From positions 47,977 to 111,976 of the IMG/VR virus record IMGVR_UViG_3300027759_000056: a DNA stretch of 64,000 bases; one strand, 5' to 3'. Shown one piece after another: positions 3,998 to 47,196 of the stretch (position 1 is the stretch's first letter; each line of letters starts with the position of its first letter). The translations under genes and the position numbers were made by a program. Under the pieces are notes generated by a model. It did not search any database. It was not told the origin of the DNA and saw only the letters and a list, made by a program, of their open reading frames with translations. The stretch comes from a virus.

Positions 3998-4234
3998 ATG
4001 ATTACAATGGAAGACTTAAAAGATTTTGACTTCACAAATGATAGTAAGGTTGAATTTATGACCAAACCAGGTTTTGTAGAAAAACGTATTCAACAAATGA
4101 TTCAAATTGGTGCGAATGAAGAGTATGAAAAATACAGTGAAGGAATGAGTGATGATGACATTGCAAAATGGAAAGAAGGGTTTGTAGTCGGAGCAAACTG
4201 GTTATTAAAAAATAAAAACGAAAAAAATATTTGA
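3998..4234 (+). CDS. hypothetical protein
   Basis: ATG 3998 directly after the previous stop. Confidence 0.6.
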   Translation: MITMEDLKDFDFTNDSKVEFMTKPGFVEKRIQQMIQIGANEEYEKYSEGMSDDDIAKWKEGFVVGANWLLKNKNEKNI

Positions 4235-4260
4235 CATATCAATAAACTTTTGTATCTTTG
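4230..4260 (+). promoter_or_regulatory. Bacteroidota-type housekeeping promoter (-33 TTTG / -7 TATCTTTG) for tRNA array 1
   Basis: TTTGACA...TATCTTTG (4253-4260). Confidence 0.75.
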
Positions 4261-4283
4261 TACCATATTTAATACTAAACACA

Positions 4284-4379
4284 ATGAAACTCGTAAATAA
4301 ACAAATCGTGAAACATGTCATTCAATTCTGTTCGAATTGGTATCTTCGCGTATTCGTAAGTTCGGGTGTTTTAAGTTAA
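4284..4379 (+). CDS. putative attenuator leader peptide 1 (MKLVNKQIVKHVIQFCSNWYLRVFVSSGVLS)
   Basis: 31-codon ORF between promoter and terminator; codons 10-22 are the 13 amino acids of the downstream tRNAs. Confidence 0.8.
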   Translation: MKLVNKQIVKHVIQFCSNWYLRVFVSSGVLS

Positions 4380-4400
4380 CACATAGTAGCCTTAAAAAGG

Positions 4401-4431
4401 AAACCCGAACTCACAAGGTTCGGGTTTTTTT
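4401..4431 (+). terminator. intrinsic terminator/attenuator upstream of tRNA array 1
   Basis: AAACCCGAAC-TCACAAG-GTTCGGGTTT plus T tract; 5' arm can alternatively pair with AGTTCGGGT (4359-4367). Confidence 0.85.
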
Positions 4432-4437
4432 GTTTTT

Positions 4438-4459
4438 AAGTTCTTTGACATGTTGGTAA
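4438..4459 (+). promoter_or_regulatory. boxA-like antitermination element
   Basis: AAGTTCTTTGACATGTTGGTAA; 20/22 identical to 11690-11711. Confidence 0.6.
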
Positions 4460-4467
4460 TCAAAAAT

Positions 4468-4540
4468 GGGACGGTAGCAAAGATGGTCAATGCGCTGGAC
4501 TGAAAATCCAGTCATGGTGGTTCGAGTCCACCCCGTCCCA
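4468..4540 (+). tRNA. tRNA-Phe(GAA)
   Basis: CTGGA-CTGAAAA-TCCAG. Confidence 0.93.
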
Positions 4541-4548
4541 CAATACAT

Positions 4549-4625
4549 TGGTGATTAGCTCAGTTGGTTAGAGCACTACGCTGATACCGTAGGGGTCACA
4601 GGTTCAAATCCTGTATCACCAACCA
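4549..4625 (+). tRNA. tRNA-Ile(GAT)
   Basis: CTACG-CTGATAC-CGTAG; encoded CCA. Confidence 0.93.
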
Positions 4626-4630
4626 TAAAT

Positions 4631-4701
4631 TACCCTTTCGTCTAACGGCAGGACGAGTGGTTTTGGTCCACTTAGTGGAGGTTCGAATCCTTCAGGGGTA
4701 A
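4631..4701 (+). tRNA. tRNA-Gln(TTG)
   Basis: AGTGG-TTTTGGT-CCACT. Confidence 0.92.
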
Positions 4702-4707
4702 CAATAT

Positions 4708-4781
4708 GACTTCGTAGCTCAATTGGCTAGAGCACCGTGCTTTTAACACGGGGGTTTCGGGTTCAAGTCCCGATGGGGTCA
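4708..4781 (+). tRNA. tRNA-Lys(TTT)
   Basis: CCGTG-CTTTTAA-CACGG. Confidence 0.93.
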
Positions 4782-4787
4782 CAATAT

Positions 4788-4860
4788 CTTTCCTTAGCTC
4801 AGTTGGAAGAGCACTTGGCTTACATCCAAGATGTCGTTGGTTCAAATCCAACAGGAAAGA
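4788..4860 (+). tRNA. tRNA-Val(TAC)
   Basis: CTTGG-CTTACAT-CCAAG. Confidence 0.92.
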
Positions 4861-4867
4861 CAAAAAT

Positions 4868-4949
4868 GCCAGTATCGCATAGCGGCAATTGCGGCGGATT
4901 GTAAACCCGCTCTCATTTGAGTTCGTAGGTTCGAGTCCTACTGCTGGCA
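4868..4949 (+). tRNA. tRNA-Tyr(GTA)
   Basis: loop TTGTAAA; long variable arm. Confidence 0.9.
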
Positions 4950-5011
4950 CAAAACTTATAATCCTCCAAAACTCACTTTTTTTACTAGTTTTGGAGAGTT
5001 ATAGAATATAA

Positions 5012-5085
5012 GTCCATATGCCTGAGAGGTTCAAAGGGACAGTCTGCAAAACTGTTATTCGTTGGTTCGATTCCAACTATGGACT
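5012..5085 (+). tRNA. tRNA-Cys(GCA)
   Basis: ACAGT-CTGCAAA-ACTGT; U73. Confidence 0.9.
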
Positions 5086-5087
5086 CT

Positions 5088-5162
5088 GTGACTGTAGTTC
5101 AGTGGTAGAGCATCGGCTTGTGGTGCCGAGTGTCGTGGGTTCGAATCCCATCAGTCACCCCA
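5088..5162 (+). tRNA. tRNA-His(GTG)
   Basis: TCGGC-TTGTGGT-GCCGA; C73 plus CCA. Confidence 0.93.
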
Positions 5163-5167
5163 AATAC

Positions 5168-5250
5168 GGAAGTGGTCCGAATGGACGAGGACACCGCCTT
5201 GAAAGCGGCTGGCTGTAAAAGGCTTGGGGGTTCGATTCCCTTCTCTTCCG
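5168..5250 (+). tRNA. tRNA-Ser(TGA)
   Basis: CCGC-CTTGAAA-GCGG; long variable arm; G73. Confidence 0.9.
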
Positions 5251-5258
5251 CAAAAAAT

Positions 5259-5333
5259 GGTTCCTTAGTTTAATTGGATAAAACATCTCGCTACGGACGA
5301 GAAGATGTGGGGGTTCGAATCCCTCAGGAATCA
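5259..5333 (+). tRNA. tRNA-Arg(ACG)
   Basis: TCTCG-CTACGGA-CGAGA. Confidence 0.92.
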
Positions 5334-5340
5334 CAACTAC

Positions 5341-5411
5341 GTAAGTGTGGTGTAATGGTAGCATAAAGGTCTCCAAAACTTTTGGCGAGGGTTCGAGTCC
5401 TTCCACTTGCG
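5341..5411 (+). tRNA. tRNA-Trp(CCA)
   Basis: AAGGT-CTCCAAA-ACTTT. Confidence 0.9.
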
Positions 5412-5417
5412 CAAAAT

Positions 5418-5499
5418 ACCAAAGTGGCGTAACGGTAGCCGCATTAGTCTTAGAAACTAATGTCCTAAGGGCGTGTGGGTTCGACTCCCACCTTTGGTA
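5418..5499 (+). tRNA. tRNA-Leu(TAG)
   Basis: TTAGT-CTTAGAA-ACTAA; long variable arm. Confidence 0.92.
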
Positions 5500-5510
5500 C
5501 AAAAATAAAT

Positions 5511-5592
5511 TGGCAGGTAGCCTAGAGGTCAGGCAGCAGACTGTTAATCTGCGACGGAAACGTCTACGTGGGTTCGATTCCCACCCTGTCAG
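5511..5592 (+). tRNA. tRNA-Asn(GTT) with atypical long variable arm
   Basis: GCAGA-CTGTTAA-TCTGC; variable arm GACG-GAAA-CGTC; G73. Confidence 0.88.
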
Positions 5593-5637
5593 CAAAATAT
5601 TTTTTGTAAAGTCAAATATCTGTTGTATATTTGTTGT

Positions 5638-6114
5638 ATGGAAAAGGGGTTTATATCATCTTCAAAAGCAATCAAAGGATATACTGAATCAAAAATTGCC
5701 AAATCTGAAAACAACGATTGTGTTGTTAGAGCAATTGCATCAGCTGCGGATATGGATTATGATTCCGCCCACCAATTCGTTAAAGAAACATTCAATAGAA
5801 AAAATGGTAAAGGTACTTTTGGACTTGGTACTGGTATGAATTTGTTGTCAAAGAATGGTAAACAAATTAACGGTAAAAACATTCAAATTATTTCTGAAGA
5901 ACACAACACCATGTTGTATTATGTGGTAGTTAAAGGTGTAAAAAAATTAAGAGCAACAACAACCGCATCATTCATCAAAAAACACCCTGTTGGTTCTTAT
6001 GTGGTTGTTGTTAAAGGTCATGCGTTTACCATCAAAGATGGTGTTGTTATTGGTAACCCTGATGATGGTAAAAAAATGAAAAAACACATTACAGGGGCTT
6101 GGAAAATTGGATAA
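5638..6114 (+). CDS. hypothetical protein with NDCVVRAI...GHA motif (possible papain-like Cys/His fold)
   Basis: sequence motif; TATATTTG 4 nt upstream. Confidence 0.6.
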   Translation: MEKGFISSSKAIKGYTESKIAKSENNDCVVRAIASAADMDYDSAHQFVKETFNRKNGKGTFGLGTGMNLLSKNGKQINGKNIQIISEEHNTMLYYVVVKGVKKLRATTTASFIKKHPVGSYVVVVKGHAFTIKDGVVIGNPDDGKKMKKHITGAWKIG

Positions 6115-6141
6115 TATGTTTTAACTTTGTATAACAATAAT

Positions 6142-6215
6142 GGTGTGGTAGCTCAGCAGGTAGAGCAGTAGATTGAAACCCTACGTGCCACGTGGTTCGA
6201 TTCCCGTTCACACCA
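6142..6215 (+). tRNA. tRNA-Phe(GAA), second copy
   Basis: GTAG(A)-TTGAAAC-(C)CTAC; imperfect T stem; TAACTTTG promoter 6122-6129. Confidence 0.8.
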
Positions 6216-6221
6216 CAAAAT

Positions 6222-6353
6222 AATTAGATGGGCGTAATGAGGGATGGTACCCGAGTCCCCAAGATTGGAGGTCACCAGTAATAGGTGGCCGTTGCGTCGT
6301 AAGGTTGTCTAATCCGTCCTGAACGGTATTCGGTTCGAGTCCGACTCTAATTA
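6222..6353 (+). ncRNA. tRNA-like RNA (acceptor stem + T-arm) with expanded central domain
   Basis: AATTAGA/TCTAATT acceptor; TCGG-TTCGAGT-CCGA T-arm; internal hairpins. Confidence 0.6.
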
Positions 6354-6431
6354 TGAAAAACTAACCCAGTTTCACAATGAGGGCTGATACCTTCGGAGTG
6401 GGGGTGACGGTCAGGAAAGACTGACAACCAT

Positions 6432-6589
6432 AGTCAGGTGGCGGAATTGGTAGACGATAATGGAGTTATACTATCAAACACAGAGGGTGCGGCGTAGATG
6501 GGAACTACTACATTATCTCTTGGACGCAAGAGAGCAATATAACCCTAACCATTTGGTATAACGTGTAGGTTCGAATCCTACCCTGACTA
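6432..6589 (+). ncRNA. tRNA-Leu-like RNA with ~100-nt insert replacing the anticodon/variable arms
   Basis: AGTCAGG/CCTGACT acceptor; GCGGAATTGGTAGACG D-arm; GTAGG-TTCGAAT-CCTAC T-arm; A73. Confidence 0.7.
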
Positions 6590-6695
6590 CAAAAACATAA
6601 ACTCAAGTACCCACACAGTGGTGAGACGGGCTAAGTAAGATACAATTCCTCGGAACTGGGAGTAGAGAGCTTGAGAGTGTTTTTTAATTAAAAAT

Positions 6696-7379
6696 ATGAA
6701 AAATTTAGTAAAAGCAATTATTTTGGTCATTGTTATAGGAATTTTAGGTTTCATAACAAGTTGGAAAGTTTGGGGTAACAATAAACCAATTGAAGATACC
6801 GTTAAAATTGATACGGTAAAAATTAAACCACAAGACACAATTGTGGATGTTAAAGGAAAATACGTTCTTTTTATTGGTGATTCACATACATCAAATCCTA
6901 ATGGATGGCAAACAATCTTATCCAACAAAACAAAGATGAGAATGAATAACATTTCTGTTGGTGGAAAAACTACAGGTTGGATGTTAGAAAGGGCAAAAGA
7001 ATCAATTCACGAGAATTTAGATTATTGTTTTATCTATGGTGGTGCCAATGATATGTTTAACAGTAAAATTACTATTGAAAGTGCCATAAAGAACATTCAA
7101 AGAATTGTTAATATTTGTAATTCCAAAGGTGTTAAACCAGTTGTGATTACGGGATTTGACCCCCTTACTTGTATTAACACACCAGAAAATCCAAACTATA
7201 AATTTAAGTATTCCAAATTTCAGAATGAATTGATTAAAAAAATTGTTGGTGGAAAGGTGATTAATACTCGTGTGATTACAAAATCGGATTGTTGGGATGG
7301 ACTTTGTCATATGGCACCATCAGGACATAAAAAAATTGGAAATTGTGTTATCAAAGAAATGAAGTTTAAGACATATTAA
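6696..7379 (+). CDS. SGNH/GDSL hydrolase with N-terminal membrane anchor
   Basis: FIGDSHT, GGAND, DGLCHMAPSGH blocks. Confidence 0.85.
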   Translation: MKNLVKAIILVIVIGILGFITSWKVWGNNKPIEDTVKIDTVKIKPQDTIVDVKGKYVLFIGDSHTSNPNGWQTILSNKTKMRMNNISVGGKTTGWMLERAKESIHENLDYCFIYGGANDMFNSKITIESAIKNIQRIVNICNSKGVKPVVITGFDPLTCINTPENPNYKFKYSKFQNELIKKIVGGKVINTRVITKSDCWDGLCHMAPSGHKKIGNCVIKEMKFKTY

Positions 7380-7400
7380 CACATCAGTATATTTATTGAT

Positions 7401-7838
7401 ATGGAAATTACAAAAAGAGACCTTTTAAATGGTTTATCATCAAAATCAAATCCAGCAACTGAAACTGCAGATGTGGTTGATATGATTGCAACATTACTTC
7501 ATTCAAGAAATCAGGCTCATGTTTTTCATTGGCAAACAAAATCACAATCATCATTTGCTGAACATATGGCCTTAGGTACGTATTACGATGAGATTGTTGA
7601 ATTAATTGATAATATTGTTGAAAGTTATCAAGGAAAATACGAAATAATTACTGGTTATAAAACAATTAAAACAGTTGATTATAAATCAACAGAACAAGTA
7701 ATATCTTATTTTAAAGAATTAGATGAAAATATTGAAAAAAATAGAACATCGGTTAAAGAATCCTATATTCAAAATCAAATTGATGGAGTTCAAGAATTGA
7801 TTTACTCAACATTATACAAATTAAGATTCTTAAAATAA
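7401..7838 (+). CDS. ferritin/Dps-like protein (DUF5856 type)
   Basis: QAHVFHWQT...AEHMALGTYYD...ESYQG...TLYKLRFLK. Confidence 0.75.
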   Translation: MEITKRDLLNGLSSKSNPATETADVVDMIATLLHSRNQAHVFHWQTKSQSSFAEHMALGTYYDEIVELIDNIVESYQGKYEIITGYKTIKTVDYKSTEQVISYFKELDENIEKNRTSVKESYIQNQIDGVQELIYSTLYKLRFLK

Positions 7839-7873
7839 TTGACGAATCACGGTTTTAAACATATATTTGCCTC

Positions 7874-8485
7874 ATGGCTAAATACACACTTAATACCTAT
7901 GGATGGTCTTTTGAGGCTATCTGCAAATCTCTAACTGACGAACAAGTCCAAATTATTAAAGACAAAATGGAAGAAGAAGGTTTTTCGGAACTCCATGAAA
8001 TCCGTTTTGATTTGGATGAACTATTGGACCTTGATTTTTGGGACGGTGAAATATTTCACAAAACCGAAGCGTTTGACAATGGTACAATGCACTTTGAACT
8101 TCTTGATGAAGAAGAAAATAAAGTATTAGAGTTTGGTATTGGTGAAACCGCCGACTTATACGAAACAATTGAAGATTTTGAAGAAAAGTATGAGTATAGA
8201 GGTTATAGTCCGATTCCTGAAGAAAAAGGACCAACCAATTTGTATTTAAGCATAGATGAAAACAAAGGTGGGATTTTTACATTCAAACTTGAATCTGATA
8301 CCATACCGACACCATCGGATTTTACTTACTCAACAGGTTCAATAGACACAACTGATGGTGATTATGATTTTATTGACAAAATTTTCTTTAAAGGACAACC
8401 ATTAGAAATTGAAGATTGTTTGGATAATTCAGGGAAATCATCCTCATGTATGATTTATACATTGGATGGTGAAACCATAGAATAA
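7874..8485 (+). CDS. hypothetical acidic protein
   Basis: 203-aa ORF; TATATTTG 4 nt upstream. Confidence 0.7.
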   Translation: MAKYTLNTYGWSFEAICKSLTDEQVQIIKDKMEEEGFSELHEIRFDLDELLDLDFWDGEIFHKTEAFDNGTMHFELLDEEENKVLEFGIGETADLYETIEDFEEKYEYRGYSPIPEEKGPTNLYLSIDENKGGIFTFKLESDTIPTPSDFTYSTGSIDTTDGDYDFIDKIFFKGQPLEIEDCLDNSGKSSSCMIYTLDGETIE

Positions 8486-8489
8486 TTAT

Positions 8490-8563
8490 GGCGAGGTAGC
8501 TCAGTCGGTTAGAGCGCAGGATTCATAACCCTGAGGTGGGGGGTTCAATTCCCTCCCTCGCTA
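8490..8563 (+). tRNA. tRNA-Met(CAT), elongator-like
   Basis: CAGG(A)-TTCATAA-(C)CCTG; GGCGAGG acceptor. Confidence 0.9.
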
Positions 8564-8592
8564 CAAATACATAATTGTGAGTATTTATATAT

Positions 8593-10146
8593 ATGATTTT
8601 ATTTGAAGGTCGTAAGGAAGACTCATTTAAGAAATTCCAAAAAAGTATTGATGGTGAAAGAAAGATGATATCCACTTACATGGATGATGCGTCTGCGTAT
8701 GATTTTTTAATTGGTGAACCTTTTATAAAAGAGACTAATTACAAATATCTTAATGATATTTTGGATTATTATTATACCGTAAATTATTATTCAGGTGAAG
8801 CTGAGCCTTTAGACAAAGACAAAGCAAGAAATCTAATATTTGGAATGAGGAGTGAAATTGACAAGATTGTTGCTTCTTTAGAAACATTTGAAAAACACAA
8901 ATCCAAATTCAAATATCCTGAGTTTAGAAAATACAATACAAATATAGAAGATTTTTTTAAGGAAGCTCAAAAGATTAAAACTGACGTTGAGACCAAACAG
9001 ATTGAAAAATCCGCCAAGAAAGAAATAGATAAAATTTTTGAAAACGATACGTTGTTGGTTATAAAACCAAAATCATTTACAGCATCTTGTTATTATGGTT
9101 CAGGTACAAAATGGTGTACAACAATGAAAGGTAATCCATCGTACTTTAATCAATATAGCTCAAGTGGAAACTTGTATTATTTAATATTAAAAAATGTTGA
9201 TAGAAGTAACAAGTTTTACAAAATGGCTATTCACGCACCAAAGAATAAAAGATTTGATGAAGCTTCAATTTGGTACGATTCAACTGACGAAAGATTAACA
9301 TCAAGAGAAAAAGAATCTGTATTAGCTCATATGCCAAAAGACGCTTATAATGCAATGGTTAATGACTATAAAACTTCATTCCCTGAAGAGAATCCAATAG
9401 ATATTATTTACAAGATAATGCCAAATGTGAACCAAAATGTGGATGATTATGTATATAAATTCAAAGGTGGTGAAATAGAATTGGCAATTGATTCACCTGA
9501 GATTGAAGATACTGACACAAATAGTCTTAGAATTAGTTCTACTTGGGGTATATCGGAACAAAGAAATGGTAAAGAGGTTTATCATGAAGATGGTGCCATT
9601 GATTGTTATTTGGAATCTTATCCAAATCAAGTGTTATTACCAAACTATTACATAGTTAAAATAAGTTATGAGATAATACCATATTCAGATACTAAAATTG
9701 TTGAAAGATATGATGGTACTACAACATTACAACTTGACAACGAAAGAAAAAACGACCCAGAATATGTTAGAATACAACTTAACGGTGCATTAAAACAAAT
9801 ATTTGACGGTTTCCAAAATAAAATGGAGTATAGACTTAGAAATGATGAGGATTTATTAGAGAAATATCCACCAACAAAGTCTAAAGCTTATACCATGTCA
9901 AAATACACCTTCACAGGTAAAGGAGCGTTAACCAAAGCATTTATGGAATATCTTAAAAACATTCCTGAAGGTAAGGTCGGTAATAAGAACGAATTTTTAA
10001 CTCAAATAGGTAGAAGAAGTGGTCCTGGTCAATATAGTAGTTTCTTTTCAGCGTCAAATATGGCAGGTATTAGTGCCAGACAAGGAAAAAGTGGTTTGGT
10101 TAAAGGACCAAACTTTGACAAATTTTACAAGAAAATATTTGAATAA
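8593..10146 (+). CDS. large hypothetical protein (ASCYYGSGTKWC family), probable head-associated; paralog of 18500-20299
   Basis: shared motif; MILFE|GRKED N-terminus; TATTTAT upstream. Confidence 0.7.
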   Translation: MILFEGRKEDSFKKFQKSIDGERKMISTYMDDASAYDFLIGEPFIKETNYKYLNDILDYYYTVNYYSGEAEPLDKDKARNLIFGMRSEIDKIVASLETFEKHKSKFKYPEFRKYNTNIEDFFKEAQKIKTDVETKQIEKSAKKEIDKIFENDTLLVIKPKSFTASCYYGSGTKWCTTMKGNPSYFNQYSSSGNLYYLILKNVDRSNKFYKMAIHAPKNKRFDEASIWYDSTDERLTSREKESVLAHMPKDAYNAMVNDYKTSFPEENPIDIIYKIMPNVNQNVDDYVYKFKGGEIELAIDSPEIEDTDTNSLRISSTWGISEQRNGKEVYHEDGAIDCYLESYPNQVLLPNYYIVKISYEIIPYSDTKIVERYDGTTTLQLDNERKNDPEYVRIQLNGALKQIFDGFQNKMEYRLRNDEDLLEKYPPTKSKAYTMSKYTFTGKGALTKAFMEYLKNIPEGKVGNKNEFLTQIGRRSGPGQYSSFFSASNMAGISARQGKSGLVKGPNFDKFYKKIFE

Positions 10147-10174
10147 TTCTTATTAGTGTCTTATACTTTTGATA

Positions 10175-11443
10175 ATGGAAAAATTATCAAATGTAGGGAA
10201 CAATATTGTGGGCTCTGAAATTATTAAAATCTCACAACAAATCAAAGAAATTGCTAAAACAAAATCAGTATCTAACCTAACCATAGGTGACTTTAATTCC
10301 AAACTATGGCCAATACCCTCAAAATTAAGAGAACACATTCAAGATGCGTATGAGTGGGATTTAACCAACTATCCAAACTCACAAGGAGAACTTGAATTAA
10401 GAGAATCCGTATCCAAACACATTAAACATCAGTTCAATGTTGATTATTCACCTGAAGAAATATTAATTGGTGGTGGAGTTCGTCCATTAATTTATACGGT
10501 TTATAAAGCCACGGTAAATCCAAATGAAGAGGTGATTTATCCTGTACCATCTTGGAATAATAACCACTATTGTTTTTTACATAACGCAAAAAAAGAAGAA
10601 ATTGAATGTACACCTGAAAATTCATTTTTCCCAACCGTTGAAGATGTTGACGGCAGAATAAGTGATAAAACATCATTGGTTTGTATTTGTTCACCGCAAA
10701 ATCCAACAGGTCGTGTAATTGACCCCGAAGTTCTGAAAGGTATTTGTGAGTTGATTGTGAGAGAAAATAAAATCAGGTCAACACAAGTAGGTTCAAGACC
10801 ATTGTATTTGTTCTTTGACCAGATTTATTCTGACATCACCAAAGAAGGTTTGTTTATCCACCCATTAACTTTATGTCCTGAAATCAGAGATTATTTGATT
10901 TGTGCTGATGGTATTTCAAAGTCATTAAACGCAACTGGTGTTCGTGTTGGTTGGTTGTTTGGTCCAAAAGATATTATTGGAAAGATGACCGAAGTTTTGT
11001 CTCACATTGGAGCATGGGCTCCAAAACCTGAACAACGAGCATTGGATGCGTACATCAGAGAAGATTATGAAGATTACATTTCTCACATTAACTATGTAAC
11101 AAAATCGTACGAATTTATATCAGATAAAATATGTGGTAAGTTGGAAGAATTGAAAAACAAAGGTCATAATGTTGATTACCAAAAACCTGATGGTGGAATT
11201 TATATTTCGGTTTATTTGGGTTATGTTCATTCATTTCCAACAACTGAAGAGTATATTTCGTTCTTAATTAATACCTGTGGGTTGGGAATTGTTCCGTTTG
11301 AATATTTTGGTTCAAAGAGTAACAAAGGATGGTTTAGAATATCAATTGGTAATGTTGCCGAGTTAAATTTGGACTCAATTATTAAAACAATTGAAAATTC
11401 TGTACAAAAATCAGTAAGTTATGTAAATTCTTTAGCATTTTAA
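10175..11443 (+). CDS. PLP-dependent aminotransferase class I/II (aspartate aminotransferase-like)
   Basis: SPQNPTG, FDQIY, DGISKSLNATGVRVGW (PLP lysine), WFRIS. Confidence 0.9.
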   Translation: MEKLSNVGNNIVGSEIIKISQQIKEIAKTKSVSNLTIGDFNSKLWPIPSKLREHIQDAYEWDLTNYPNSQGELELRESVSKHIKHQFNVDYSPEEILIGGGVRPLIYTVYKATVNPNEEVIYPVPSWNNNHYCFLHNAKKEEIECTPENSFFPTVEDVDGRISDKTSLVCICSPQNPTGRVIDPEVLKGICELIVRENKIRSTQVGSRPLYLFFDQIYSDITKEGLFIHPLTLCPEIRDYLICADGISKSLNATGVRVGWLFGPKDIIGKMTEVLSHIGAWAPKPEQRALDAYIREDYEDYISHINYVTKSYEFISDKICGKLEELKNKGHNVDYQKPDGGIYISVYLGYVHSFPTTEEYISFLINTCGLGIVPFEYFGSKSNKGWFRISIGNVAELNLDSIIKTIENSVQKSVSYVNSLAF

Positions 11444-11500
11444 TTGACACTTTTCAAAAGTTTGATATATTTAATAAGAAATTAAATAATAATACATTCA

Positions 11501-11569
11501 ATGATTACCATCAACATATTCGGCACACCAGCAACAGAGGCTGATACTTCCAAAGTGGAGATGGGATAA
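11501..11569 (+). CDS. putative attenuator leader peptide 2 (MITINIFGTPATEADTSKVEMG)
   Basis: 22-codon ORF ahead of a terminator; core GTPATEADT matches tRNA array 2. Confidence 0.75.
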   Translation: MITINIFGTPATEADTSKVEMG

Positions 11570-11590
11570 TATTGTAAAAAAATATCTTAC

Positions 11591-11622
11591 AAAAACCCAT
11601 CTCAAAAGGATGGGTTTTTTTT
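11591..11622 (+). terminator. intrinsic terminator/attenuator upstream of tRNA array 2
   Basis: AAAAACCCATC-TCAAAAG-GATGGGTTTTT plus T tract; CCCATCTC can alternatively pair with GAGATGGG (11558-11565). Confidence 0.85.
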
Positions 11623-11653
11623 GTGTTTGTTTGGCAGTATCAAAAAAATGTAT

Positions 11654-11661
11654 TAACTTTG
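11654..11661 (+). promoter_or_regulatory. Bacteroidota-type -7 promoter element
   Basis: TAACTTTG with TTTG ~20 nt upstream. Confidence 0.65.
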
Positions 11662-11689
11662 TAGTGTTGAAAAACACAACAGAACAAAA

Positions 11690-11711
11690 AAGTTCTTTGA
11701 CGTATTGGTAA
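11690..11711 (+). promoter_or_regulatory. boxA-like antitermination element
   Basis: AAGTTCTTTGACGTATTGGTAA. Confidence 0.6.
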
Positions 11712-11720
11712 GAAAAAATT

Positions 11721-11792
11721 GCTCGGTTCATCTATCGGTTAGGATGCTAGGTTTTCATCCTAGAAAGAGGGGTTCGACTCCCCTACCGAGTA
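11721..11792 (+). tRNA. tRNA-Glu(TTC)
   Basis: CTAGG-TTTTCAT-CCTAG. Confidence 0.92.
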
Positions 11793-11801
11793 CAAATAAA
11801 T

Positions 11802-11876
11802 AGCGGGGTGGAGCAGAGGTAGCTTGCGAGGCTCATAACCTTGAGGTCACAGGTTCGAATCCTGTCCCCGCTACCA
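11802..11876 (+). tRNA. tRNA-Met(CAT), initiator-like body with A1-U72 pair
   Basis: AGCGGGGTGGAGCAG...; loop CTCATAA; CCA. Confidence 0.88.
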
Positions 11877-11884
11877 AAATAAAT

Positions 11885-11958
11885 CGCGAGTTGGTGTAAT
11901 GGTAACATAATGGGCTCATAACCCATAGTTCCGAGTTCGAGTCTCGGGTTCGCAACCA
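11885..11958 (+). tRNA. tRNA-fMet(CAT)
   Basis: C1:A72 mismatch; GGG/CCC anticodon stem; CCA. Confidence 0.88.
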
Positions 11959-11961
11959 ATG

Positions 11962-12172
11962 GATGTAACTTGGGTCGTGCCACATTGGCCACTTTTACAT
12001 CAAGAGTCAGAAGGATTAGAGGTGGCCGTGACTACTCTGACTCGAATACAAAGTACCACGATGCTTACCGTAAGAACAGCACAGTGGTAGATAGAGTTAA
12101 CGTGAATAACCCAAGGCATAAGCGTTAACAACCCCCAATAAGACTATTTGGCCAATAGAAACTGTTGGGGTT
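11962..12172 (+). ncRNA. unassigned multi-hairpin, pseudoknotted RNA
   Basis: five hairpins and two loop-loop complementarities (see findings). Confidence 0.6.
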
Positions 12173-12179
12173 ATTAAAA

Positions 12180-12251
12180 GCGAGTGTAGTATAAAGGCTA
12201 TTACTCCAGCCTTCCAAGCTGGATATGCGAGTTCGATTCTCGCCACTCGCT
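12180..12251 (+). tRNA. tRNA-Gly(TCC)
   Basis: CCAGC-CTTCCAA-GCTGG; U73. Confidence 0.92.
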
Positions 12252-12256
12252 CAAAA

Positions 12257-12453
12257 AGAACCTTTTCTTACGGAAGTCCGATTAGCGCGGATGAAAGGAA
12301 CCTTGACTTCACGGGAGTAGCTACCCAATTGAAGCTTGAATGACTCAAGGTACTCTGTAATGGACCCTGCTCTATGGTGCACACATAACAGGTGATGGGG
12401 AACAAACCATCGGTAAAATCTAAACCCACGGTGAGCGTGGAAGGAAAGTTTCT
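12257..12453 (+). ncRNA. unassigned ~200-nt structured RNA
   Basis: closing helix AGAACCTTTTCTT/AAGGAAAGTTTCT; several internal hairpins; no ORF. Confidence 0.55.
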
Positions 12454-12460
12454 TTTTTTT

Positions 12461-12535
12461 GCGGGAGTAGCTCAGGGGTAGAGCTTCAGTTTACCAAACT
12501 GAAAGTCGAAGGTTCGAATCCTTTTTCCCGCTCCA
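12461..12535 (+). tRNA. tRNA-Gly(ACC)
   Basis: TCAGT-TTACCAA-ACTGA; GCGGGAG acceptor; U73 plus CCA. Confidence 0.88.
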
Positions 12536-12603
12536 AATGTAAATCTTAAAAAGGGCCCTTCCGTGTTTATCACGGCTTGTTGGGCCCGGGTTTACTAACT
12601 TAC

Positions 12604-12675
12604 GGTCCTGTAGTTAATCGGCTATAATATTGCCCTGTCACGGCAAAGTGCCGGGTTCGATTCCCGGTGGGACCG
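12604..12675 (+). tRNA. tRNA-Asp(GTC)
   Basis: TTGCC-CTGTCAC-GGCAA; G73. Confidence 0.92.
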
Positions 12676-12686
12676 CAAAAATAAAA

Positions 12687-12756
12687 GGGCCTGATGTCAA
12701 CGGCAGACCGTTTGATTTGCAATCAGAACGTATGGGTTCGATTCCCACAGTGTCCA
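12687..12756 (+). tRNA. tRNA-Ala(TGC)
   Basis: TTGA-TTTGCAA-TCAG; G3.U70; irregular acceptor/D arm. Confidence 0.8.
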
Positions 12757-12765
12757 CAAACAAAT

Positions 12766-12841
12766 AGCGTAGTAGAGGAGTCAGGTTTATCTCATCTGCT
12801 TTGGGAGCAGAGGCACGCTGGTTCGAATCCAGTCTACGCTA
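12766..12841 (+). tRNA. tRNA-Pro(TGG)
   Basis: TCTGC-TTTGGGA-GCAGA. Confidence 0.9.
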
Positions 12842-12874
12842 CTAATTATAAAAAAAATTTACTATCTTTGTAAC

Positions 12875-13162
12875 ATGAAAAACATATTAAAAGACCCCCG
12901 ATTTTATTTTTTCCTATGGATTGTTCTATCTATTATTCTTGCCATTACGTTAGGAGCTTGTAAACAGAAACCTTTGATTGAAAAAGGTGATGTAGTTGAA
13001 AAGTTCGTTATTGATTCAATGGTTCAATTGCCACCTCACAGCACAATTGAACTTGACAGGAAGTACAAGTATTTCATGTCAGACAGCAGTGAGTTTACTT
13101 CTTTGAAGAAATATAACATTGGTGATACAATCACTTATGTTTACAAAAAACAAGGAAAGTAA
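12875..13162 (+). CDS. putative lipoprotein/membrane protein
   Basis: hydrophobic N-terminus ending in LGAC lipobox. Confidence 0.65.
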   Translation: MKNILKDPRFYFFLWIVLSIILAITLGACKQKPLIEKGDVVEKFVIDSMVQLPPHSTIELDRKYKYFMSDSSEFTSLKKYNIGDTITYVYKKQGK

Positions 13163-13181
13163 TATATATTAAAACATAAAT

Positions 13182-13258
13182 GCCTGAATAGCTTTAATTG
13201 GTAGAGCACCTGACTTGTAATCAGGGGGTTGGCGGTTCGAGTCCGTCTTCAGGCTCCA
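13182..13258 (+). tRNA. tRNA-Thr(TGT)
   Basis: CCTGA-CTTGTAA-TCAGG; CCA. Confidence 0.93.
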
Positions 13259-13270
13259 AACACAATAATC

Positions 13271-13456
13271 ATGGACCCCAAGACTCAAATGACGCAGGAA
13301 GATTTTTTAACTGAATTGACTGAATTAAGTCAGTCATTTGGATTGTATGGTGAAAATGACAACTTTGGTGTTGATGGAGTTTACATACATACCCAACCAG
13401 AAATGTACATATGTCCGTGGGATAATACTCAAGGGGATTGTACTCATTTCAACTAA
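13271..13456 (+). CDS. small hypothetical protein
   Basis: MDPKTQMTQEDF..., between two tRNAs. Confidence 0.5.
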   Translation: MDPKTQMTQEDFLTELTELSQSFGLYGENDNFGVDGVYIHTQPEMYICPWDNTQGDCTHFN

Positions 13457-13461
13457 TATTT

Positions 13462-13535
13462 GGACGGGTAGCTCAACAGGTTAGAGCAGGATGCTTATAT
13501 CATCAAGGTTGGGGGTTCAAGTCCCTTCTCGTCTA
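13462..13535 (+). tRNA. tRNA-Ile(TAT)
   Basis: GATG-CTTATAT-CATC; standard D and T arms; A73. Confidence 0.85.
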
Positions 13536-13549
13536 CTAAAAATTTAATT

Positions 13550-14122
13550 ATGAGCAACGAATATAATCAATGGTATTGGAAACTTTATAGATGGTTCAGA
13601 TGGGACGCTAAACATCTTCATCGTGATATTGCACAGGGTTTTAGAAACCTATGGAAATGGTTACCAATAATTTGGAAAGACCGTGATTGGGATGACCATT
13701 TTATTTTTGAAGTTTTGAAATTCAAAATCAAGAATACCGCCAAGTATACAGAAAAAAAACAAAGGTTTGTTGGTTGGGAAAAAGAAGTTAGATATATGAG
13801 AATATGTGAAACTTTAATTGATAGAATTCAAAATGAGTATTATCAGATGGAGTATCAAGATTATCATGATTTTGATATTAGTACGGTACCAACAGAAGAT
13901 GGTTTGTATGAAGTTGTCTTTGATGTTAAACGTGATGATACTGATGAATTTGTTAAAAAATACCCACACGCTCTAAGAAAAGCAAAAAAAGACCCAAGAT
14001 TTAAGAGTTATTTTAAGAATGAAAGAAATGGTTATCTTGCTGTGGGTATGATTAGACACGAAAAAGCAAGAAAACTGTTATTCAAAATTTTGGAACAAAG
14101 AATTGAGCGTTGGTGGGATTGA
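13550..14122 (+). CDS. hypothetical Trp-rich phage protein
   Basis: WLPIIWKDRDWD...IERWWD. Confidence 0.75.
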   Translation: MSNEYNQWYWKLYRWFRWDAKHLHRDIAQGFRNLWKWLPIIWKDRDWDDHFIFEVLKFKIKNTAKYTEKKQRFVGWEKEVRYMRICETLIDRIQNEYYQMEYQDYHDFDISTVPTEDGLYEVVFDVKRDDTDEFVKKYPHALRKAKKDPRFKSYFKNERNGYLAVGMIRHEKARKLLFKILEQRIERWWD

Positions 14123-14150
14123 TTTTTTTCACTATATTTGTATAACAAAT

Positions 14151-14224
14151 GGACCTTTAGCTCAGTTGGTCAGAGCGGCTGACTCATAATCAGTAGGTCG
14201 TAGGTTCAAGCCCTACAGGGTCCA
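14151..14224 (+). tRNA. tRNA(CAT), probably Ile2 (lysidine type)
   Basis: GCTGA-CTCATAA-TCAGT; GGACCTT acceptor resembles Ile2 bodies. Confidence 0.8.
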
Positions 14225-14227
14225 CAA

Positions 14228-14413
14228 ATGAAACAAAAAATGTATAGACCAAAAATTGACCGAGTTATTGGTGGAGTATGTTCTGGTATTGCATACCACG
14301 TAGACATTGACCCAATTTTTGTTCGAGTATTATTCTCAATATTAATTTTTAGTCCACTCCCAATTATCTTTGCTTATTTATTATTTTGGTTTTTTACACC
14401 AGGTGGTGAATAA
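14228..14413 (+). CDS. pspC: PspC-domain membrane protein
   Basis: DRVIGGVCSGIAYHVDIDPIFVRVLF signature. Confidence 0.85.
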   Translation: MKQKMYRPKIDRVIGGVCSGIAYHVDIDPIFVRVLFSILIFSPLPIIFAYLLFWFFTPGGE

Positions 14414-35249: not shown

Positions 35250-35978
35250 ATGAAAATATTAGGACCACAAGATACAGGTAAAGGAATATTGGTTGAAATG
35301 GATGCGGGATATATTTCCCCAAACGAAACTCACAATAAGAATTTATTAGAGCAAGCCAACAAAAACATGTTGGACTATTCAAAACCATTTGAATTCTATG
35401 CCGTACTGCAAAAATACAATACACCAAACCGTAACGGTAGAGTGTATCCTGAAAAGATTCTCAAAAGAGAAGCTGACAACTATAAGAAGATGATTGCCAA
35501 AGGTACATCATTGTCTGAATTAAACCACCCTGAATCATCGTTAATTGACCTTGACAGAGTATCTCACCTTATCAATGACGTATGGTGGGACGGACACATC
35601 CTTATGGGTAAATTAAAGCTTCTAACGTCACCTGGGTTCCACGAAAGAGGAATTGTATCTACCAAGGGTGACCAAGCGGCAAACTTACTAAGACAGGGGG
35701 TTACATTAGGTATATCATCACGTGGTGTTGGTTCACTTAAAAAGGTTGGTGAACAGAATGAAGTACAAGGAGATTTTGAATTAATTTGTTTTGACTTAGT
35801 ATCATCACCATCTACACCTGGTGCATACTTGTTTACTAATGTTGAAGATAGAAATAAATTTGAGGAAAATTTGGAAGAAGAGAAGGTTTCAAGAACACCC
35901 GAAATTGGAGTAAGTGAAAAAGGAATGAACCGCTCTATTGACTTATTGAAAAAATTAAATCATTATTTGGACAAATAA
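35250..35978 (+). CDS. prohead core protease (T4 gp21-like)
   Basis: NRNGRVYP, ELNHP, GISSRGVGS, FDLVSSPSTPGA. Confidence 0.95.
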   Translation: MKILGPQDTGKGILVEMDAGYISPNETHNKNLLEQANKNMLDYSKPFEFYAVLQKYNTPNRNGRVYPEKILKREADNYKKMIAKGTSLSELNHPESSLIDLDRVSHLINDVWWDGHILMGKLKLLTSPGFHERGIVSTKGDQAANLLRQGVTLGISSRGVGSLKKVGEQNEVQGDFELICFDLVSSPSTPGAYLFTNVEDRNKFEENLEEEKVSRTPEIGVSEKGMNRSIDLLKKLNHYLDK

Positions 35979-46824: not shown

Positions 46825-47196
46825 TTATTTAAGTTTGTATGGCTTATCCGCCATACTTTCAATATCTTTATGTATTAAAGATTGTAACATATCATCATCA
46901 ATATCGCTTAATGACATATTATCGTCTTCTTTGTTATTTGATTTTTCCCAAATTGTAGATTGTAATTTGGCAAGTGTTAATTTTTTCTCAACAACATCAT
47001 TAATAATTTTTTGTTGTTTTTCCAATACAGGACCAATAACAGTCATGTCTTCAGGGTCTTTTAACAAAGCCAACATTTTATTTTGAACTCTAATCGCTGT
47101 TGACCTTTGTTCCACTAATTCATTATATATCTCTTGTAATAGAGATAATACAGAATCTTTACTAAGATTTATTTCTTTTTTCTTTGGTCTAGACAT
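46825..47196 (-). CDS. hypothetical protein
   Basis: 123-aa ORF; TATTTAT 4 nt upstream. Confidence 0.7.
   Translation of the reverse strand: MSRPKKKEINLSKDSVLSLLQEIYNELVEQRSTAIRVQNKMLALLKDPEDMTVIGPVLEKQQKIINDVVEKKLTLAKLQSTIWEKSNNKEDDNMSLSDIDDDMLQSLIHKDIESMADKPYKLK

Follow-up and report, generated by a model that had tools for sequence, protein, structure and literature searches.

How a phage might adjust the output of the tRNA genes that it carries is the question raised by a 64,000-nucleotide stretch of viral DNA (the window, in which positions are counted below). The record represents an uncultured giant phage with two main tRNA blocks, each located behind its own leader ORF and terminator. 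A preliminary description of this DNA had proposed that each leader is an attenuator-like sensor mirroring its own array, and this proposal is borne out by the codon match seen here and in relatives. Two ribosome-mediated (leader-peptide) transcription attenuators likely stand ahead of the phage tRNA arrays, and the arrangement is best read as trp/ilv-style ribosome-mediated attenuation applied to tRNA genes. Unless noted otherwise, the features described are on the plus strand.

Upstream of array 1, promoter P1 (4231-4260) has the form TTG-N19-TATCTTTG, or TTGACA-N16-TATCTT in an alternative reading, and is kept in the relatives L001, L003, L015 and L036. The ATATTTAATA motif (4265-4274) is positioned just past its −7 box, near the predicted transcription start, and is followed by leader ORF 1 (4284-4379) with 31 codons (MKLVNKQIVKHVIQFCSNWYLRVFVSSGVLS) and its stop codon at 4377. 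A conserved hairpin within this ORF (4304-4354, core at 4322-4340), showing compensatory changes in L036, L142 and L070, might act as a pause site for RNA polymerase or as a synchronising hairpin. It is followed by an antiterminator arm ('region 2', 4356-4367, AAGTTCGGG) complementary to the 5' arm (4403-4414) of intrinsic terminator 1 (4397-4434), whose CCCGAAC/GTTCGGG stem precedes a T tract. A ribosome halted at the stop codon would mask the antiterminator arm. A GTTCTTTGAC motif (4440-4449) sits 18 nt ahead of the first tRNA and recurs ahead of array 2 and of the tmRNA, and there is no promoter box between terminator 1 and the first tRNA of array 1.

The second unit is built from the same elements. 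Its P1 (11444-11473) reads TTG-N19-TATATTTA or TTGACA-N16-TATATT and has the ATATTTAATA motif (11467-11476) overlapping the −7/−10 box, while leader ORF 2 (11501-11569) has 22 codons (MITINIFGTPATEADTSKVEMG) with its stop codon at 11567. Antiterminator arm 2 (11558-11565, GAGATGGG) ends one base 5' of this stop codon and is complementary to 11596-11603 in intrinsic terminator 2 (11591-11627; stem CCCATC/GATGGG, then a T tract). A second promoter P2 (11631-11661, TTG-N20-TAACTTTG) follows 3' of the attenuator and 5' of array 2, with the GTTCTTTGAC motif at 11692-11701 ahead of the array. Further promoters occur upstream of the distal array 2 genes, the last CAT tRNA having its own (14110-14140). 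Given that P2 is canonical and placed after the terminator, and that distal promoters exist as well, array 2 is not strictly gated; where an array has a promoter after its terminator, the predicted attenuator could do no more than supplement basal expression. Both leader ORFs were found where the preliminary description had put them (with products of 31 and 22 aa), and both start without a Shine-Dalgarno sequence in an A-rich leader. That TTGACA (4231, 11444) and ATATTTAATA (4265, 11467) are shared by both leaders also holds, but not in the same register (34 vs 23 nt); judged by their sequence, these shared motifs are Bacteroidota-type promoter elements (TTG-N19-TAnnTTTG/A).

ARAGORN and Rfam agree on the contents of both arrays as previously listed, except for an Ala tRNA seen by Rfam alone. 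Array 1 (4468-5593) encodes, in order, Phe, Ile(gat), Gln, Lys, Val, Tyr, Cys, His, Ser(tga), Arg(acg), Trp, Leu(tag) and Asn. Array 2 (11721-14225) has a proximal part (11721-12842) with Glu, Met, an initiator-like Met (C1xA72, anticodon stem GGG/CCC), Gly(tcc), a freshwater-1 RNA, Gly(acc), Asp, the Ala-like gene and Pro, and a distal part (13182-14225) in which Thr, Ile(tat) and a further CAT tRNA are interleaved with ORFs. The atypical tRNA-Ala(TGC)-like gene (12687-12756) scored 29.5 bits (cut-off, 29); inspected by eye, it has the anticodon TGC within a loop of 7 nt and pairs G3 with U70, but its D arm is odd, and it is the weak point of 20-amino-acid coverage. Provided that it is accepted, both arrays together cover all 20 amino acids with Ile as the sole overlap, as had been claimed. 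Additional tRNA genes are found elsewhere in the record, namely Arg(tct) at 278, Phe at 6142 and CAT at 8490, plus upstream minus-strand genes for Leu(taa), Ser(tga) and Ser(gct), and at least five tRNA genes of the record have a plain TAnnTTTG promoter without a leader.

The coding content of each leader follows the array behind it. Codons 2-22 of leader 1 specify all 13 array-1 amino acids at least once each and no others, the only foreign residue, Gly28, being located in a blind tail that encodes the antiterminator arm. Array-1 anticodons read 18 of these 21 window codons under strict wobble rules, a number that rises to 21 once U34 is allowed to decode four-fold boxes. The match extends to isoacceptors: the Leu codons (CTC/CTT) and the Arg codon (CGC) of leader 1 correspond to Leu(tag) and Arg(acg) inside array 1 but not to Leu(taa) and Arg(tct), both of which are located outside it. 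The codons in question are rare in the phage: in its long ORFs, CTN accounts for 23% of all Leu codons and CGT/CGC/CGA for 26% of all Arg codons, with CTC and CGC themselves at ~1% each. When all six frames of the 112-kb record were scanned for 21-residue windows holding only, and all of, the 13 array-1 amino acids (composition-based chance ~3e-5 per window), the six that were found overlap one another and are all inside leader 1. Array 2 is mirrored by codons 8-16 of leader 2, GTPATEADT, one of three sites in the record with a 9-residue window restricted to {E,M,G,D,A,P,T} and holding at least 6 of them (chance ~5e-7 per window). Leader 2 also has four early codons for which array 2 offers no tRNA, namely att (codon 2), atc (codon 4), aac (codon 5) and ttc (codon 7).

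The two units thus place a short ORF with matching codons between promoter and genes, followed by a terminator and a mutually exclusive antiterminator, the features of a leader-peptide attenuator. Terminator strength is −13 to −17 kcal/mol in both units, and the terminator 3' arm is duplicated at the ORF end, so that an antiterminator can form. In folds representing a stalled ribosome, an antiterminator of 9-11 bp (−10 to −17 kcal/mol) was obtained for both leaders, while the terminator alone remained in folds mimicking a ribosome at the stop codon. Folding still predicts the antiterminator without any ribosome; codons 2-3 can form 5 bp with the antiterminator arm, which could block this ribosome-free structure, and no covariation was seen in that pairing. 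Across units, the arm pairs far better with its own than with foreign terminators (−10.3 vs −6.4 kcal/mol, Wilcoxon p = 2e-11). Its own pairing ranks among the top 10% for 33 of 44 units, and most units have the arm no more than ~20 nt away from the stop codon. All three segments covary, as in L015, for example, where CCCATC/GATGGG/GATGGG is replaced by CCCACC/GGTGGG/GGTGGG. Among Rfam leader families, Thr_leader (RF00506) gave 27.8 and 26.1 bits, below its cut-off of 55, and no other leader family appeared at E-values up to 1.

We then turn to 46 unique leader/array units collected from 41 syntenic loci and unrelated contigs in IMG/VR; because the leader-finding script requires an ORF adjoining the terminator, leaderless arrays cannot be counted in this sample. 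Leader ORFs are retained in all relatives, and a homologous leader is absent from GenBank phage records. The amino acids of an array were found in its own leader in ~95% of cases vs 72% after array shuffling (z ~8), and 46% of leader codons were read by the own array vs 30% after shuffling (z ~10). The association of leader and array amino acid sets is therefore far above that of shuffled sets: none of 5000 shuffles reached the observed value in either test, which also holds with one unit per leader cluster. The codon match is confined to the reading frame, with 0.45 in frame vs 0.25 and 0.24 out of frame (p ~1e-8 to 1e-9). Three independent cases appear striking in their leader/array match. 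The L152 leader LSLHSSLSYLLSYH stands ahead of Tyr, Ser, Tyr, His, His, Ser and three Leu tRNAs, and its codons tta/ctg/ttg and tca/tcg/agt match every isoacceptor; the L050 leader TTGTTYQPKQYTQGGKP precedes Pro, Gln, Tyr, Thr, Gly and Lys, and the L147 leader LLHTLLLDRQGLLRRL precedes Leu, Arg and Leu.

We also looked in relatives for tRNAs redistributed between arrays with leaders left unchanged, the outcome that the preliminary description had named as refuting its idea, and found that the leaders differ to match instead. Leu, Glu, Pro and Trp/Tyr tRNAs reside in different arrays among relatives, with leaders differing accordingly. Of 122 (amino acid, genome) pairs taken from 7 genomes, 116 have the amino acid enriched in the leader that precedes the array encoding the cognate tRNA. 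In L004/L012/L014, Leu and Asn are grouped with G,D,T,A,P, and Glu and Met with the large array, with leaders to match. L014 has a third array that begins with Pro, and there P occurs three times in leader C and not at all in leader A; array 2 of L015 has no Pro and its leader no P. Likewise, the window codon is tcg in G000 and L036, both of which encode Ser(tga), and cag in L001, L003 and L015, which lack this tRNA. Mismatches were seen as well: the L017 leader keeps N, T, L and A with no such tRNAs found by ARAGORN (Rfam adds three weak tRNA-like matches), leader C of L014 still has K and N, the L059 terminator is not accompanied by an ORF, and short ORFs in L116 and L153 match large arrays in part (9 of 14-15 amino acids).

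From these arrangements we infer translation of the ORFs, stalling-dependent read-through and its physiological trigger as follows. Host RNA polymerase would start at P1 and make the short ORF, which a ribosome would translate at once. If all sensing codons are decoded fast, the ribosome would reach the stop codon and cover the antiterminator arm at the ORF end, allowing the terminator hairpin to form and transcription to end before the tRNAs. By contrast, a scarce charged tRNA would stall the ribosome at any matching sensing codon and leave the antiterminator arm free to pair with the terminator 5' arm, and polymerase would read through into the array. Because each leader lists the amino acids of its own array, largely by codon families, this would amount to an OR-gate feedback in which shortage of any member tops up the whole set. 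The shortage could stem from tRNA cleavage by host defences, from host shut-off or from a codon-usage mismatch. With a leader spelled in the amino acids of the array and wired to a switchable stop, the phage probably steps up tRNA production when the supply to ribosomes becomes scarce.

The preliminary description had gone further and seen a circuit with two channels designed to partition the entire code, the split being forced by the limited number of codons able to gate an antiterminator. Coverage of all 20 amino acids with an overlap in Ile alone agrees with such a design, and L004 also covers 20 amino acids with two leaders, its arrays being P,N,G,D,T,A,L,R and V,E,F,H,S,I,K,C,W,Y,Q,R,M. 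A limited codon window is compatible with the geometry as well: the antiterminator arm begins at least ~10 nt past the last of the sensed codons, leaders of larger arrays are no longer than those of smaller ones (17-44 codons overall, mostly 22-36; Spearman 0.03), and the largest fully mirrored sets comprise 13 amino acids. However, amino acids partition automatically once a non-redundant, near-complete tRNA set is placed in two clusters, and relatives divide the set otherwise, into two or three gated arrays (L014 has three leaders). Moreover, several tRNAs remain outside any channel on plain promoters, array 2 has its own promoters, and the L051 leader fits 15 of 17 amino acids into 28 codons. 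The two-way split of the 20 amino acids is real but incidental, and we regard a whole-code design as unlikely.

The link between leader and array has itself to be weighed against two readings that do without it or without the ribosome. The terminators may just end a small upstream unit (a peptide gene or sRNA), with the tRNAs made from promoters or 5' elements of their own such as P2 and GTTCTTTGAC. The location of P2 fits this, as do the solitary tRNAs on plain promoters, a TAnnTTTG box after the terminator in 20 of the 46 units, and the presence of a GTTCTTTGAY motif also ahead of the tmRNA, which must have its own promoter. Such uncoupling would nevertheless leave unexplained why leaders track tRNAs in frame and at the isoacceptor level across dozens of divergent units, and why a copy of the terminator 3' arm at the ORF end covaries with the terminator; in addition, the stretch from terminator to first tRNA is free of promoter boxes in 26 of the 46 units, array 1 among them. 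We consider it improbable. Even less credible is a translation-independent sensor, in which leader RNA would bind tRNAs via codon-like triplets in a T-box manner. Uncharged tRNA is a known ligand of RNA switches (T-box riboswitches), and T-box leaders use a similar terminator/antiterminator alternative, but no T-box or other riboswitch was matched within 4200-14300 at E-values up to 1, the triplet match is limited to the frame of the conserved ATG and ends at the stop codon beside the antiterminator arm, and up to 13 specifiers in 60 nt would be without structural precedent.

Ribosome-mediated attenuation, as preferred here, has its closest counterparts in enterobacteria, while a full-text literature search found no published account of leader-peptide control of tRNA genes. 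Enterobacterial multivalent leaders include those of ilvGMEDA (Ile/Leu/Val) and thr (Thr/Ile), beside the trp, his, phe and leu leaders. They share with the phage units a promoter-proximal short ORF with regulatory codons, a hairpin in the leader, a terminator and an overlapping antiterminator that, as predicted for the phage, depends on the ribosome position, and in the multivalent ones a stall at any of several amino acids leads to read-through, as proposed here. The phage leaders differ in that the genes controlled would be tRNA genes rather than biosynthetic enzymes, that as many as 13 amino acids are represented by one or two codons apiece, where the enterobacterial leaders have runs of one to three amino acids, and that codon choice follows the isoacceptors of the array. 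They are also phage-borne, use Bacteroidota-type promoters without a Shine-Dalgarno sequence, and show no evident classical 1:2 anti-antiterminator. Attenuation of pheST (through the pheM leader) and T-box riboswitches control aminoacyl-tRNA synthetase genes, and similarly tie a gene of the translation apparatus to charged tRNA supply by a terminator/antiterminator switch, the kind of control proposed here. However, those systems serve synthetases for one amino acid each, and the T-box, for which the phage leaders gave no match, binds tRNA directly without a ribosome.

An accessory tRNA array held low and turned on when translation is impaired, as we propose for the phage, is known from the trn operon of Anabaena sp. 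PCC 7120, a long tRNA array induced under translational stress (PMC8421152). That array is cellular, and its control relies on the repressor TrcR, which targets direct repeats spanning the −10 box and the start site, with no mention of a leader peptide or attenuation in the two papers (PMC8421152, PMC10272220). Finally, excerpts of two reports describe phage tRNAs as replacing host tRNAs that are depleted or cleaved by tRNA-cleaving defences (PMC10264068, PMC11464382). Those excerpts address the function of phage tRNAs, whereas the subject here is the control of their genes; on their account, countering host tRNA-cleaving defences is a likely biological reason for a phage to sense tRNA shortage.

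Both tRNA arrays are preceded by the same order of elements, namely a promoter, a short ORF, a strong intrinsic terminator and then the tRNA genes (leader 1 at 4284-4379, 31 codons, terminator at 4397-4434, array at 4468-5593; leader 2 at 11501-11569, 22 codons, terminator at 11591-11627, array at 11721-14225). The leader ORFs, as well as the TTGACA and ATATTTAATA motifs, were found where the preliminary description had placed them, and the tRNA content that it had read in both arrays was confirmed by ARAGORN and Rfam. The Ala tRNA of array 2 (12687-12756) was detected by Rfam only, with a score of 29.5 bits (cut-off 29), and this Ala-like gene possesses a TGC anticodon, a G3:U70 pair and an atypical D arm. 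If it is accepted, the two arrays jointly account for all 20 amino acids, with Ile as the sole overlap. The proposed two-channel partition of the whole code holds for this phage, but it is a consequence of a tRNA set that is complete, non-redundant and placed in two clusters. It is not general, as relatives differ in both the partition and the number of channels.

Codons 2-22 of leader 1 (K L V N K Q I V K H V I Q F C S N W Y L R) spell all 13 array-1 amino acids and nothing else, a property shared by no other 21-residue window in the six frames of the 112-kb record. The composition-based chance of this property is about 3e-5 per window, and it is no smaller because the AT-rich genome favours the array-1 amino acids. 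For leader 2, the block GTPATEADT has a chance of about 5e-7 per window, with three such places in the record, and four early codons of this leader are not read by array 2. The Leu codons of leader 1 are CTC and CTT and its Arg codon is CGC, whereas TTA/TTG make up 77% of Leu codons and AGA/AGG 75% of Arg codons in the long ORFs of the phage. Given that Leu(tag) and Arg(acg) reside inside array 1, and that Leu(taa) and Arg(tct) are located outside it and have plain promoters, leader 1 tracks the isoacceptors of its array and not the codon usage of the genome.

A copy of the terminator 3' arm is located at the 3' end of each ORF (AAGTTCGGG at 4356-4367 in leader 1 and GAGATGGG at 11558-11565 in leader 2). 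Folding was computed for the RNA exposed while the polymerase sits at the terminator loop. With a simulated stall at any codon up to R22 (leader 1) or T16 (leader 2), this arm paired with the terminator 5' arm at -10 to -17 kcal/mol, while a simulated ribosome at the stop codon covered the arm and only the terminator could form. The sensing window of leader 1 defined by this geometry coincides exactly with the 13-amino-acid list, and the blind tail holds the foreign residues Gly28 (leader 1) and S17, K18 and V19 (leader 2). Leader 1 also contains an internal hairpin (4304-4354) that is conserved, shows compensatory changes and may be a pause element.

Relatives were retrieved via a class I/II aminotransferase gene (10169-11443, plus strand, Pfam E = 1e-38) that lies immediately 5' of leader 2 and keeps this position across the whole phage group, in 41 syntenic loci with 51-98% identity. 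Further, unrelated contigs were retrieved via the 5' motif of the arrays; its pattern GTTCTTTGAMNTNTTGG is loose and matched at least 114 stretches, mostly by chance, and only loci with at least 2-3 tRNAs were kept. Searching with the 418-aa protein encoded 5' of leader 1 gave no matches, and no leader 1 homologues were found in GenBank phage records. A unit was defined by a terminator of -11 kcal/mol or stronger, a tRNA within 250 nt downstream and an upstream ORF of 15-50 codons, and the script yielded 46 unique leader/array units. The apparent leader in locus L012 (MKILKK...) was rejected because this ORF lies out of frame within the 3' end of a protein gene, beside the terminator of that gene. 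Among the 46 units, about 95% of array amino acids were present in their own leader compared with 72% when arrays were shuffled among leaders, and 46% of leader codons were read by their own array under strict wobble compared with 30% after shuffling. None of 5000 shuffles reached the observed value in either the amino-acid or the codon test; the result persisted with one unit per leader cluster, and the match was limited to the reading frame of the ORF. In four units (L152, L050, L147 and L095) it is evident without statistics. The antiterminator arm paired much better with its own terminator 5' arm, at -10.3 kcal/mol versus -6.4 kcal/mol with unrelated ones (Wilcoxon p = 2e-11, 44 unique units). 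More than 10 different core sequences occur among these 44 units. Three-way changes of arm and terminator were also seen, as in locus L015.

The refuting condition of the preliminary description, a redistribution of tRNAs between arrays with unchanged leaders, was checked in relatives and the outcome favoured leader sensing. The placement of tRNAs in arrays varies among these phages, and the leaders vary with it. In L004, L012 and L014, Leu and Asn are grouped with G, D, T, A and P, while Glu and Met are in the large array, and the leaders match. Pro is the first gene of the third array in L014, where one leader lacks P and the other has it, and leader B of the same locus lost Trp, Tyr and Lys together with their tRNAs. 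On a finer scale, codon 17 is tcg where array 1 includes Ser(tga) and cag where it does not. Overall, 116 of 122 (amino acid, genome) cases, drawn from 7 genomes that each have two or three gated arrays, and not phylogenetically independent, were in agreement. Exceptions were seen in L017, whose leader retains N, T, L and A without ARAGORN-detected tRNAs and where Rfam gives three more weak tRNA-like matches, and leader C of L014, in which K and N are retained.

Taken together, these comparisons of sequence strongly support the idea that each leader responds to the availability of the tRNAs of the array that follows it. A possible explanation, that the code may be split because a ribosome can gate an antiterminator only from a limited window of codons, fits the geometry and the constant leader length. 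A broader reading, to which we would give an even chance, is that modular surveillance of charged tRNAs operates in many tRNA-rich phages, probably of Bacteroidota, with the roster-like leader of each cassette evolving along with its content. Depletion of a single species, for example by a host anticodon nuclease, would then lead to transcription of exactly the cassette that replaces it, and the gated cassettes of this phage would watch all 20 amino acids.

Not all tRNA genes are behind such a gate. A canonical promoter (11631-11661) lies between the terminator and the first gene of array 2, and a TAnnTTTG box occurs between terminator and first tRNA in 20 of 46 units versus about 2 expected by chance; array 1 is without one. 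As background, the E. coli tRNA-Phe gene pheV has tandem promoters. Arrays with a post-terminator box would combine a basal level with regulated read-through, and the distal genes of array 2 are interspersed with ORFs and promoters. Solitary tRNAs with a TAnnTTTG box 12-20 nt upstream and no leader were also observed (Arg-tct at 278, a second Phe-gaa at 6142 and a CAT tRNA at 14151 in the window, as well as Ser-tga and Leu-taa on the minus strand at 35500-35588 and 46837-46922 in coordinates of the whole record, C1), indicating that gated and ungated tRNA genes coexist, including duplicates of gated Phe and Ser-tga. A further CAT tRNA is found at window position 8490; it and the one at 14151 are candidates for tRNA-Ile2 (lysidine).

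Several other RNAs accompany these genes. A freshwater-1 RNA (RF02979, 73.8 bits) is located at 12356-12418 between tRNA-Gly(tcc) and tRNA-Gly(acc) of array 2, with another at the matching place in L003 (12823-12885). L001 has a flanking aminotransferase of 98% identity and only 4 nt between its two Gly genes, so the element must have been either inserted or deleted; its co-transcription with the tRNAs, and excision along with them, is probable. A GC-rich 221-nt spacer (11959-12179) separates an initiator-like tRNA-Met from tRNA-Gly(tcc) and has a CCCCAAT...GTTGGGG hairpin at its end. It is missing from L001 and gave no match to any Rfam family, and may be another structured RNA within the array. 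Two tRNA-like stretches follow the second tRNA-Phe within 6216-6589. One (6216-6420) carries a GGTTCGAGTCC T-arm, and ARAGORN reports a '???' tRNA at the corresponding position of L001. The second stretch (6432-6589) has a 30.5-bit Rfam tRNA match, and the spread of this match over 158 nt suggests an interrupted or intron-bearing tRNA. A phage tmRNA (16769-17152, minus strand, 112 bits) is conserved in L004, L012 and L025. Its 5' side (upstream to 17190) contains TATATTTG followed by GTTCTTTGAT, the same 5' motif as before the arrays (4440 and 11692), which in this phage group apparently labels the 5' leaders of transcripts for stable RNAs. Finally, a tRNA with anticodon CTA, labelled 'Pyl' by ARAGORN, occurs in some related arrays (L003 at 6634-6706, L054 and L057); such a tRNA would suppress amber codons, a hint that some of the phages recode stop codons.

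The 112-kb IMG/VR virus record, of which the window spans positions 47977-111976, has an estimated completeness of 37%, and terminase, portal protein and major head protein are encoded in the window. Promoter-like sites of the Bacteroidota form (TTG-N18-20-TAnnTTTG) stand directly 5' of genes, solitary tRNAs and leader 1, and start codons lack Shine-Dalgarno sequences; on these grounds the host is probably a member of the Bacteroidota. A sigma-70 reading of the promoters was discarded because TTG-N19-TAnnTTTG fits better and recurs 5' of genes and solitary tRNAs. Judged by its terminase, the closest relative in culture is the myovirus Flavobacterium phage immuto (27% identity), which has four tRNAs only; it was rejected as a model because the small ORF before three of its tRNAs has neither terminator nor codon match. 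A HAD_SAK_2 domain protein ('HAD domain in Swiss Army Knife RNA repair proteins', E = 3e-20) is encoded at 2176-2739 on the plus strand, 1.5 kb 5' of leader 1, and hints at RNA or tRNA repair functions adjoining the arrays.

The reason why phages carry tRNA genes, and the use made of them, has been debated for some fifty years, and to our knowledge the regulation of these genes is almost unexplored. If leader sensing is true, this would be the first case of attenuation at tRNA genes, and a leader that lists 13 amino acids would exceed every known attenuator in multivalency. The phage would gauge decoding speed codon by codon and supply tRNAs on demand, providing a direct and testable link between phage tRNAs and tRNA depletion by host shut-off or tRNA-cleaving defence systems. 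It would also represent a natural sensor design for simultaneous read-out of the availability of many tRNAs, and an annotation rule by which a leader predicts array content, including atypical tRNAs that gene finders miss, as exemplified by the two Ala codons in leader 2 that match the Ala-like gene.

The phage leaders belong to no Rfam leader family, and full-text literature searches turned up no account of tRNA genes controlled by leader peptides. In their proposed mechanism they resemble the ilv and thr leader-peptide attenuators, which are likewise multivalent, but they differ from these in target (tRNA genes), in degree of multivalency and in host. The nearest published regulated tRNA array is the trn operon of Anabaena, which is controlled by a repressor (PMC8421152, PMC10272220), in contrast to the leader-peptide attenuation proposed for the phage arrays.
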